Source: Neodothiora populina (taxonomy: Eukaryota). Taken from it: DNA of 64,000 nt. Under the pieces are notes generated by a model. The model saw nothing but the letters and a program-made list of their open reading frames with translations. It did no database searches and had not been told where the DNA came from. Shown piece after piece: positions 35,548-37,443 of this stretch (position 1 is the first letter of the stretch; the number at the start of each line of letters is the position of its first letter). The stretch is from the NCBI RefSeq assembly GCF_041146345.1, contig NW_027191411.1:1116001-1180000 (forward strand), given 5' to 3'. The translations under genes and the position numbers were made by a program.

Positions 35548-37443
35548 TCACGCACACAAATTCATCCTGATCTTCGCTACAGTGGCAGTGTCAAAACACA
35601 GGTAATCGGTCATATACGTGTCGATGCCCCCAAAGACCTGGTCGAACATTTCGATAGTGGCGACCATATATTCCTCCCGCGCCTGCACCACATTTGCTAC
35701 CGCTGCAACGTTGCCAGCAAGCCCCGGCTGAGCAAGTAATCTTCGAGTCGCGTGCGAGCCCCAGTCCATATTGCTGTCCAAGTTGTTGAGAGCATATTCC
35801 TTCGCAATCGTGGAGGTGTCGCAGCCTGCAAGCAGCATAAGTAGCATTGCAGTGATACCGGTCCTGTCTTTGCCAGCGGAGCAATGTACTAAGATCGGGG
35901 TTGGCGAGTCCTGTGCAAGATGCTCAAAGATAGGGCGAAAAGCAGACACTCCACATTTCAGAGTATGCTGATATGCAGCCGCATAGCCCTTCGCCGCAGT
36001 TGCGTACTCTTGAAGCCGCGCTTCCCTTTTCTCAGGTAGCCAGTCTTCATCACTGAACACCGGAATCGCGACCCTCTCCACGTCTTGCAGCAGTAGCGCG
36101 AATGTTGAGCGAGACTCTTCCATGAATTGAGCAGCACTGTCTTTGCGATGCGGAACTTCCTTGGTGCTATGAACATCATTGTGGACCTCAATCGGACTGC
36201 GCAAGTCAAATAATTTCGTAATACCGAGCTTCAGAAATGCTTTGCGCCCTAGCTCTGTTATTTTCGACGGATCGCCACTACGGAAGACCAGGCCGCGTTT
36301 GACAATCTTGTTCCCGATGTCTCGAAACATGCGCACCCCTTCAATGTCAACAAATGGAGGACTAGGGTACAACACATCTTGAGCTTTAAGTCGTTTGTTC
36401 TCCTCGTGAGTCTGTTCACATGTAAAGTCGTTGTCAGCACCAGTTGACGGCGACAGTTCCCGAAAGGAGTGGAAGTAATCCACAATTGGGGGGCGTTCGG
36501 TGTCATCCACATCGCAGAAATCGTCAGTCCAAGGAAGGAACATCTTCTCGGTGTTCTTCATCACAAAGCTCCCTCGATGGAGTCGTTTCTCCGCTGTACT
36601 GAGAATTGCTTTAGCCATAGTGGTAAGCTCTCTCAATGCCTTGTGAGCATTCTGCCTTTGGCCGACATCGACTTCGGCAATTCCCAGCAGACCGATAAGA
36701 CTGTAGGTATCTATCAAGGTCCCGATCTCTACCCCATACCCTACTGGGAATGACAGCTTCTCAAGAAGCTCTCGGCGTGCAGCGAATTCACCGGCTAGTG
36801 GTTGTCGAAATCCTGCCAGGTCTGGCCAATACATGTTCAAGAGAGGTCGTGCAAGGATTTCTGTAACTCTACCACCCTCATGAGGACGGACTTCACCGCT
36901 TGCTGACTTGAAAGGTCTGTCGAAACATGCTCGGACCATTGAAATATCCTCAAGTAGTAGCAGTGGTCCTAGTATTCCAATGAGGTGCGCCGAGGAAGGA
37001 TCAGCCGTGTCTCCGTCGAGGAACGCGACAATGTCACCTAAGTTCTTTGTCGCCAGCAATCCGCGCCATAATGCGTCACCCTTGCCTCGACTTGAACCAA
37101 GCTCGGGGGCGATGTCCTTTCGTTGGATTACTTGTGCACCTGCATCGGCAGCCACCTGCCCGGTTCCATCCACTGAATTAGCGTCAACAACGAACAAGTG
37201 AGAGACAACTTTTGCTTCGATCAGAGGTCTAACGGTATGCTCAATTACGCCTCCGATGGTAGACGCGACTTCCTTGCCTGGTATTATCACTGTGACGACC
37301 AATCGTTTCCTCTGTACCGTAGTCGCAAGTTCATCTATGTCAAAGTCTCTGTGAGAAAACCGGCGCTCTTTGAGCCAATCCTGGAATGCGTTCGAGTTGC
37401 TGTTCTTGATAGTGTTCTCACAAGAGATAGCAACAGGGGCCAT
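35548..37443 (-). CDS. Fusion protein: glucosyl/mannosyl-3-phosphoglycerate synthase (GpgS/MpgS, GT81) plus tyrosine-phosphatase-like (Y_phosphatase3) domain
   Basis: N-half: VVDANSVDGT, GKGDALWRGL, FLDGD, GGRVTEILARPLL, QPLAGEFAARRELL, GYGVEIGTLID, DVGQRQNAH. C-half: FRDIG, VFRSG, FDLRS, HCSAGKDRTG. One uninterrupted ORF; first ATG at 37443. Confidence 0.9.
   Translation of the reverse strand: MAPVAISCENTIKNSNSNAFQDWLKERRFSHRDFDIDELATTVQRKRLVVTVIIPGKEVASTIGGVIEHTVRPLIEAKVVSHLFVVDANSVDGTGQVAADAGAQVIQRKDIAPELGSSRGKGDALWRGLLATKNLGDIVAFLDGDTADPSSAHLIGILGPLLLLEDISMVRACFDRPFKSASGEVRPHEGGRVTEILARPLLNMYWPDLAGFRQPLAGEFAARRELLEKLSFPVGYGVEIGTLIDTYSLIGLLGIAEVDVGQRQNAHKALRELTTMAKAILSTAEKRLHRGSFVMKNTEKMFLPWTDDFCDVDDTERPPIVDYFHSFRELSPSTGADNDFTCEQTHEENKRLKAQDVLYPSPPFVDIEGVRMFRDIGNKIVKRGLVFRSGDPSKITELGRKAFLKLGITKLFDLRSPIEVHNDVHSTKEVPHRKDSAAQFMEESRSTFALLLQDVERVAIPVFSDEDWLPEKREARLQEYATAAKGYAAAYQHTLKCGVSAFRPIFEHLAQDSPTPILVHCSAGKDRTGITAMLLMLLAGCDTSTIAKEYALNNLDSNMDWGSHATRRLLAQPGLAGNVAAVANVVQAREEYMVATIEMFDQVFGGIDTYMTDYLCFDTATVAKIRMNLCA

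Follow-up and report, generated by a model that had tools for sequence, protein, structure and literature searches.

What does a fungus do with a gene that joins, in one open reading frame, a glycosyltransferase of bacterial type and a phosphatase of fungal type? Such a gene lies in a 64,000-nucleotide stretch of the Neodothiora populina genome (RefSeq assembly GCF_041146345.1, contig NW_027191411.1, positions 1,116,001 to 1,180,000), here called the window, in whose coordinates positions are given. On the minus strand, a single frame runs from stop to stop across 35548–37497; from the start ATG at 37443, it encodes an intronless synthase–phosphatase fusion of 631 residues (35548–37443, stop codon included). 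Residues 19–321 (36481–37389) form a GT81 glucosyl/mannosyl-3-phosphoglycerate synthase domain, and residues 358–631 (35551–36372) an MptpB-like CX5R phosphatase domain (ALP family, PF13350); between them is a variable linker that is gapped in the alignment (residues 322–357, 36373–36480). We propose, with a probability of roughly 0.6, that the two halves make up a one-gene pathway to mannosyl- or glucosylglycerate, with the CX5R domain as a third class of phosphatase for glucosyl- or mannosyl-3-phosphoglycerate (GPG or MPG). The fusion itself is real, conserved and chimeric in origin. It is apparently undescribed: the open full-text literature, which leaves subscription papers outside, yielded no account of the fusion, no CX5R enzyme that dephosphorylates GPG or MPG and no function for a fungal GT81 protein; PMC6652019 and PMC11046441 offered nothing pertinent.

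The synthase half scored 315.5 bits against NF010496, the equivalog model for glucosyl-3-phosphoglycerate synthase (cut-off 262), and 20.6 bits against PF09488 (Osmo_MPGsynth), below the cut-off of 27. Its best solved relative was the Rubrobacter MpgS structure 3f1y (E = 3.5e-64), and the ESM Atlas returned GpgS clusters only, with a score of 0.84, below the bar of 0.9. The key residues of GT81 enzymes, whose roles have been described for mycobacterial GpgS (the DxD motif, the Asp-Lys-Glu triad, Tyr229 and the acceptor residues Val186/Thr187; PMC2581804), are present as D143/D145 (DxD), K121/E239 (triad), Y236 and V193/T194 (acceptor). K121, D143, D145, R192, Y236 and E239 were conserved in 42/42 fungal rows, V193 in 41/42 and T194 in 37/42, and the acceptor loop GGRVT is retained, with all catalytic residues, in the window protein and most of its relatives. 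In the other five of the 42 rows, T194, at the position that binds the glycerate carboxylate, is replaced by Asn. No GT55-type synthase was found elsewhere in the genome.

As the sugar donor, GDP-mannose appears plausible and at least as likely as UDP-glucose, because the donor pocket resembles that of Rubrobacter MpgS, an enzyme of dual MPG/GPG specificity (PMC3240985). In mycobacterial GpgS, guanine is blocked by Ser81 and mannose by a network of Ser163, Tyr165, Ser210 and Tyr213 (PMC2581804), which is an imperfect marker, M. hassiacum GpgS being without two of its serines. The window protein does not have these marks of glucose specificity; at the corresponding sites it carries A88, A172, F174, A217 and F220, and at the guanine- and mannose-exclusion positions the fungal residues either equal those of Rubrobacter MpgS or are similarly small. 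Mannosylglycerate, not glucosylglycerate, may be the product. The Rubrobacter xylanophilus MpgS/GpgS enzyme (3f1y, 3kia, 3o3p) also shares the PLAGE and RQNxH motifs with the fungal synthase, as well as Ala at the mycobacterial Ser81 position and Val at the Glu54 position. However, at the Arg101 position the fungal synthase has retained Arg, as in the mycobacterial enzyme and unlike Rubrobacter MpgS, and the latter is a stand-alone protein with no fused phosphatase.

The phosphatase half matched PF13350 (Y_phosphatase3) over residues 366–630 at 162 bits (cut-off 22.2). A reading made earlier from the letters alone (the sequence-only reading) had described a CX5R, PtpB-like domain with its motif at 35857–35886, and this proved exact: the P-loop HCSAGKDRTG, residues 520–529, occupies these positions, with Cys521 as the nucleophile followed by Lys525, Asp526 and Arg527 (roles as given in PMC3091653). 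The loop agrees with the ALP pattern HCxxGKDR[TA]G, including its Cys, Lys, Asp and Arg, as defined in the same paper, and C-x-x-GKDRTG is intact in 21/21 complete phosphatase domains of the fused family. The segment YPSPPFVDIEGVRMFRDIG begins at residue 359 (36369). An AlphaFold2 model of the phosphatase domain alone (103 sequences) had a pLDDT of 92 and a pTM of 0.91, and superimposed on PtpB (1ywf) with a Z score of 22.9 (root-mean-square deviation 2.8 over 217 residues) and on the C. difficile homologue 8dhi with a Z score of 21.6. Other CX5R families scored 11.7 or less, and Foldseek agreed on the PtpB fold. The full-length model was of low confidence (pLDDT 65, pTM 0.43, 11 sequences) and gives no inter-domain geometry.

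As expected for an ALP, neither the WPD nor the KNRY motif of the classical protein tyrosine phosphatases (PTPs) occurs in the translation of the fused domain. The domain had no NCBIfam match and therefore none to the HAD-type MpgP/GpgP models (TIGR01486 and others), which stand for a HAD-IIB fold with DDDD motifs, its Pfam matches and fold being PTP-type and PtpB, respectively, and it had neither a PF00300 match nor the RHG motif of histidine-phosphatase GpgP. It shares the P-loop, the PF13350 match and the fold with the ALPs MptpB, Lmo1800, Lmo1935 and LM1 (PMC3091653; 1ywf, 2oz5, 8dhi), but these, as described, consist of a phosphatase alone and act on phosphoinositides and phosphotyrosine peptides, whereas the window domain is fused to a glycosyltransferase. 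The wording of 2010, “phosphatase domain only”, therefore does not fit the window protein, although that wording describes the family and does not strictly define it, as other fungal ALPs are also fused. The search for such fusions covered the best 120 of 283 matches. In Candida/Scheffersomyces-type yeasts and Mucorales, the ALP follows an alpha/beta-hydrolase (P0464, P0465, P0470, P0494, P0504); in Trypethelium and Viridothelium lichen models it follows a cytochrome P450 (P0461, P0509), and these may be merged gene models.

The sequence-only reading had suggested that a bacterial synthase was fused to a resident fungal phosphatase, and had called for separate phylogenies of the two domains. 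These placed the synthase among Solirubrobacterales and the phosphatase among ascomycete stand-alone paralogues. FastTree, run on 236 GT81 domains, joined all 38 fungal rows in one clade (support 100) that was sister to Patulibacter-like rows (99), and both lay inside a clade whose named members are all Solirubrobacterales (99). IQ-TREE on 64 rows gave the same topology (100/100, 100/97 and 100/97). P0014 and rows covering fewer than 220 residues were excluded from the synthase trees. By these trees, the synthase half is bacterial, nested among the Solirubrobacterales.

The nearest bacterial proteins, among the matches listed, were GT2–GT81 tandems without a phosphatase. At 52 bacterial loci, 45 of which are named, by eye, as Solirubrobacterales or Solirubrobacteraceae or carry close labels of metagenome-assembled genomes, no PF13350-like frame was found within up to 6 kb on each side of the synthase (0/52; a positive control was run). 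Among 201 sampled genomes of Solirubrobacterales, which are incomplete, the synthase exceeded the cut-off in 138 and PF13350 had a match in 36, with both in 27. (These tallies include three genomes flagged as unpublished, G041, G062 and G180, which had no PF13350 match and on which no conclusion rests.) When positions were compared by hand, the two genes were adjacent in none of the 27 genomes, lying on different contigs in 21 and at least 100 kb apart on the same contig in 6. A bacterial clade that already carries the fusion, the contrary case named in the sequence-only reading, was thus found neither at the 52 loci nor in the 201 sampled genomes nor among 558 compared proteins. The Solirubrobacterales operon is itself conserved (L007 2354–6948 and most of L006–L050) and has no phosphatase; read by eye, its order is deacetylase, acyl-CoA dehydrogenase-like protein, methyltransferase, flavoprotein and GT2–GT81.

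The best stand-alone matches of the phosphatase half were fungal (Aureobasidium, 38%, E = 1e-48), with named bacteria appearing from E = 7e-18. In an IQ-TREE analysis of 77 rows, 13/13 fused phosphatase domains fell in one clade of 18 (99/96), which sits among ascomycete stand-alone proteins (97/90). The remaining five rows of this clade are partial or unnamed models, of which four lie within the lichen-type fusions, perhaps as split models, while P0255 may be a true stand-alone sister of the fused clade. An approximately unbiased (AU) test on 44 rows with a quick tree rejected a topology in which the fused domains were forced together with the bacterial rows (p = 0.028). Four rows falling among the fungi, one of them nearly identical to a Pyronema protein, were excluded from the AU tests. 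A further line of evidence, independent of the trees, is an intron. The stand-alone paralogue of the host has a 100-nt phase-0 GT-AG intron at SE/GF, and at the aligned position a 52-nt phase-0 GT-AG intron interrupts the fused gene on each of two metagenome contigs, L060 and L061. Judged from this alignment, the window gene has lost the shared intron, whose site falls at Lys485/Gly486 (35986–35991). Tree, AU test and intron all indicate that the phosphatase half is fungal.

Both proposed origins thus stood up, but “resident” is better replaced by “fungal”: the host stand-alone paralogue groups with Aureobasidium in the 77-row tree, apart from the fusions. Recruitment from the host lineage's own paralogue was not the best tree, with a borderline AU result (p = 0.0505). 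Since a separate clade, apart from that paralogue, unites the fused domains from three fungal classes, the fusion is, on this phylogeny, older than the host lineage and common to the three classes. The two domain trees share four sub-groups (lichen, Aspergillus/Penicillium, Cladosporium and the group of the window gene), whose order is weakly supported. The simplest account is a single fusion, after which the gene was lost in places or passed from fungus to fungus; two fusions are the alternative.

The fusion family was sought among the best 120 of 2344 matches, and cluster look-ups added further members. Full-length fusions were listed for Cladosporium fusiforme, Aspergillus lucknowensis, A. 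nanangensis and the lichen fungi Pseudevernia, Psora and Lecanora, and partial gene models for A. heteromorphus and three Penicillium records, together with many metagenome proteins; no Sordariomycete was among these GT81 matches. The look-ups added Letharia (two species), Cornicularia and Mycoblastus, bringing the lichen genera with the fusion to at least six. Both domains occurred in 72/558 compared proteins, and all named carriers are fungal. Databases automatically label some members “glucosyl-3-phosphoglycerate synthase” or “tyrosine specific protein phosphatase”. Many metagenome relatives end just before the second half of the phosphatase, which the intron explains for the two contigs read, L060 and L061. 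These are independent contigs that both carry the fusion; L062 matched weakly and is unrelated. Letharia-like records show the gene split into several calls on a 370-kb contig but predicted as one 605-residue protein on two short Logan contigs, and this would fit a single spliced mRNA. In lichen-type copies (P0039, P0041, P0036, P0239, P0240, P0395) there is an apparent intron gain in the RQN metal loop of the synthase, where the predicted proteins run off or have an insertion.

Compared with L060, nonsynonymous divergence (dN) was 0.13 in the synthase, 0.25 in the phosphatase and ≈1.2 in the linker (19 codons), with synonymous sites saturated. Over three pairwise comparisons, dN was 0.13–0.29 for the synthase and 0.25–0.48 for the phosphatase, and the proportion of synonymous differences (pS) was 0.69–0.85, that is, saturated. 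Both domains are under purifying selection, and both halves look alive.

In the pathway that we propose, the GT81 domain would join a nucleoside diphosphate sugar to 3-phosphoglycerate, as its family membership and conserved residues suggest, and the CX5R domain would then strip off the phosphate through a phospho-cysteine to leave mannosyl- or glucosylglycerate, as the fusion suggests. As the trees and the intron show, an ascomycete took up the synthase from a Patulibacter-like actinobacterium, in whose operon there is no phosphatase, and joined it to a copy of a fungal ALP gene; the fusion then spread, or was patchily retained, in Lecanoro-, Eurotio- and Dothideomycetes. The fuller form of this proposal strikes us as an even bet: that fungi recruited a cysteine-based enzyme of the PTP superfamily as a third, convergent class of GPG/MPG phosphatase and with it completed a half-pathway from soil actinobacteria, and that lichen fungi and some stress-tolerant moulds make mannosyl- or glucosylglycerate, as a protective solute of their own, from one chimeric gene, possibly passed between classes.

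The assignment to a third class gains indirect support from the conserved fusion, the purifying selection and parallel fusions in prokaryotes. When 36 longer GT81 proteins, chosen from the best 150 of 24,117 matches, were scanned for additional domains, P0303 had a C-terminal HAD domain of the MPGP family (TIGR01486, 231 bits, cut-off 164.75; NF011072 also matches this half) and P0314 a C-terminal histidine phosphatase (PF00300, E = 1.8e-50). HAD and histidine phosphatases are the two classes described for GPG/MPG (PMC3240985), and MggB, which acts on mannosylglucosyl-3-phosphoglycerate, is also a HAD enzyme (PMC3736172). The phosphatases fused behind GT81 domains in these prokaryotic records are therefore of the classes known for this step, and the fungal CX5R domain, in the same slot, may be read as a third. 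The fused enzyme MgsD suffices for mannosylglycerate production in yeast (PMC6240254). No HAD MPGP-family gene exceeded the cut-off in the N. populina genome. Other domains in the 36 proteins were Usp, GT4, GT2, GATase, PTS EIIA and MGS; P0294, P0351, P0332 and P0272 are further prokaryotic fusions, with a glutamine amidotransferase, PTS EIIA, an MGS-type transferase and GT4. Primary alkyl phosphates are substrates of some CX5R enzymes, with PTPMT1 acting on phosphatidylglycerophosphate and SEX4 and laforin on glucan phosphates; all three were among the distant fold matches of the modelled phosphatase domain. A host hydrolase for glucosyl- or mannosylglycerate was sought through PF22422, and the best of five matches was unconvincing as a cytosolic enzyme. 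This match (L063 1138–3231; G000:C1) is an intronless gene of 680 codons with a full MGH1-like GH63 match, a signal-peptide-like start and an extra C-terminal domain.

Several observations weigh against a role of the phosphatase in this pathway. Characterised ALPs act on p-nitrophenyl phosphate, phosphotyrosine peptides and phosphoinositides, but are weak on phosphoserine and 40-fold or more weaker on glycerol 2-phosphate (≤1.07 versus 45–63 nmol/min/mg; PMC3091653, table 2); GPG, too, carries its phosphate as an alkyl ester. Fungal ALP domains, among the matches listed, are also fused to alpha/beta-hydrolases and P450s, and fusion alone is therefore a weaker functional clue. Eleven non-lichen fused domains differ from 28 stand-alone ones by many fixed changes (for example M372, W468, R473, Y487, N553 and D556), one being Asn to Met in the NFRD motif, but at almost every one of those sites nine lichen-type rows still have the ancestral residue, and only four positions mark both groups, so that no shared remodelled pocket is evident. 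The genome also contains 16 His_Phos_1 matches, which might carry out this step in its place, and the bacteria show no gpgS–PF13350 association (gpgS being present in 27/36 PF13350-bearing genomes and 138/201 overall). Finally, several fusion relatives appear to be decaying: P0031, P0034 and P0035, from one metagenome lineage, leave the frame in the phosphatase and have synthase substitutions too, and the Penicillium models P0014 and P0038 are without part of the synthase (the acceptor region).

Some of these points would fit a phosphatase that keeps an ancestral ALP role, on phosphoinositides or phosphoproteins or in regulating or localising the synthase, with GPG/MPG handled by other phosphatases or used in its phosphorylated form. 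The P-loop is the standard ALP signature, the lichen-type fused domains are 37% like the non-lichen fused group and also 37% like stand-alone ALPs, and the bacterial donors manage without a linked phosphatase; the weakness of ALPs on small alkyl phosphates (PMC3091653) and the 16 histidine-phosphatase matches point the same way. We nevertheless consider such a role unlikely, since the host has a separate stand-alone ALP and a fused copy kept by selection across three classes needs a job of its own, and since the parallel HAD and histidine-phosphatase fusions point to a pathway step. A little less probable still is that the domains act in series on another molecule, with a different phosphorylated acceptor or donor (such as a polyol phosphate) and the phosphatase acting on the related glycoside phosphate. 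In the donor bacteria, a second domain, GT2, is attached to the synthase and the operon is one of unknown product, T194 is Asn in the five fungal rows mentioned above, and one survey found GT81 only in lichen fungi supplied with ribitol (bioRxiv 10.64898/2026.07.28.741190, whose relevant passage gives no function). The conserved GGRVT loop and catalytic residues and the score above the equivalog cut-off argue for 3-phosphoglycerate.

ALPs are modestly active on 5'-AMP and 5'-IMP (PMC3091653), and the phosphatase might remove the nucleotide by-product (GDP or UDP), pulling the transfer forward. We hold this to be quite improbable, as it has no parallel among the 36 scanned GT81 proteins and would leave the phosphorylated product unfinished. 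Hardly any weight goes to a fusion of bacterial origin transferred whole, or to an artefact of annotation or assembly, a pair of explanations that is largely refuted: the frame is single here and the fusion recurs on L060 and L061, the phosphatase nests among fungi and has their intron, and the two genes were adjacent at 0/52 bacterial loci and in 0/27 genomes with both. A remote bacterial fusion is conceivable, as the searches gave the best 120 of 2344, 150 of 24,117 and 120 of 283 matches.

Taking the two-step pathway to mannosyl- or glucosylglycerate as the preferred reading, the window protein can be set beside known systems. MgsD of Dehalococcoides mccartyi (NF011072; PMC6240254) likewise has an N-terminal 3-phosphoglycerate glycosyltransferase and a C-terminal phosphatase in one chain, and the window protein would, like MgsD, give the free solute from one gene. 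The two differ in their parts, the window synthase being GT81 and its phosphatase CX5R, with no NF011072 or HAD match. We take the MgsD synthase to be of the Osmo_MPGsynth (GT55) type and its phosphatase to be HAD; the Sordariomycete MPG synthase genes are presumably GT55 as well. As predicted from its domains, the window protein works like MgsD and is not a member of the MgsD type. The HAD MpgP/GpgP enzymes and the mycobacterial histidine-phosphatase GpgP (PMC3240985) catalyse the same reaction as that proposed for the CX5R domain, but have unrelated folds and work through phospho-Asp and phospho-His rather than phospho-Cys. The Sordaria MPG synthase SMAC_02065.3 is another bacterial-derived MPG synthase in an ascomycete, already proposed as a transfer, in a passage that names neither its family nor a fused phosphatase (PMC6794485). 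PolJ is described as a small-molecule phosphatase, with no family named there (PMC5365060).

If the proposal is correct, the CX5R domain would represent a third non-homologous fold for GPG/MPG dephosphorylation. A different type of phosphatase has reportedly been suggested for Rubrobacter, and “third class” may need renumbering. PolJ is presumably PTP-type and would then be a candidate precedent for a PTP-type domain acting on a small molecule. The gene would point to a specific candidate substrate for one fungal ALP; the biological roles of that family are called unknown in PMC3091653. It would also predict that lichens and other ascomycetes have a compatible solute of this kind; PMC6240254 names archaea and bacteria as the organisms known to make mannosylglycerate in two steps. 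A gene acquired by transfer would have been made complete by joining it to a host gene, and the fungal half of the join would still be recognisable by the host intron, and a single fungal-adapted gene could replace MgsD for making protein stabilisers in yeast.

The genome contains one synthase copy and, besides the fusion, two other PF13350-like genes. The neighbours of the fusion gene, read by eye, are ordinary fungal genes (dynein heavy chain, protein kinase and sulfite oxidase), and the GC content across the locus is flat and at background level; a contaminant contig is therefore ruled out. The GC content at third codon positions is 0.49 and 0.56 in the two halves, much like the 0.51–0.65 of the neighbours. 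No RNA entry was listed for 35300–37700, a result that carries no information on expression. The adjoining sulfite oxidase-like gene, also read by eye, lies upstream and is divergent (39168–40859, plus strand). On contig L060, a sulfite oxidase-like gene (2225–3793) is found downstream of the fusion on the same strand; the linkage is kept between the window and L060, with the order changed. Farther along the plus strand of the window, at 41070–41816, is a gene for a trypsin-like secreted protein that apparently has neither the catalytic His nor the catalytic Ser, with TIAEC and GDGGGP in place of what we take to be the usual motifs; it is possibly a pseudo-protease.

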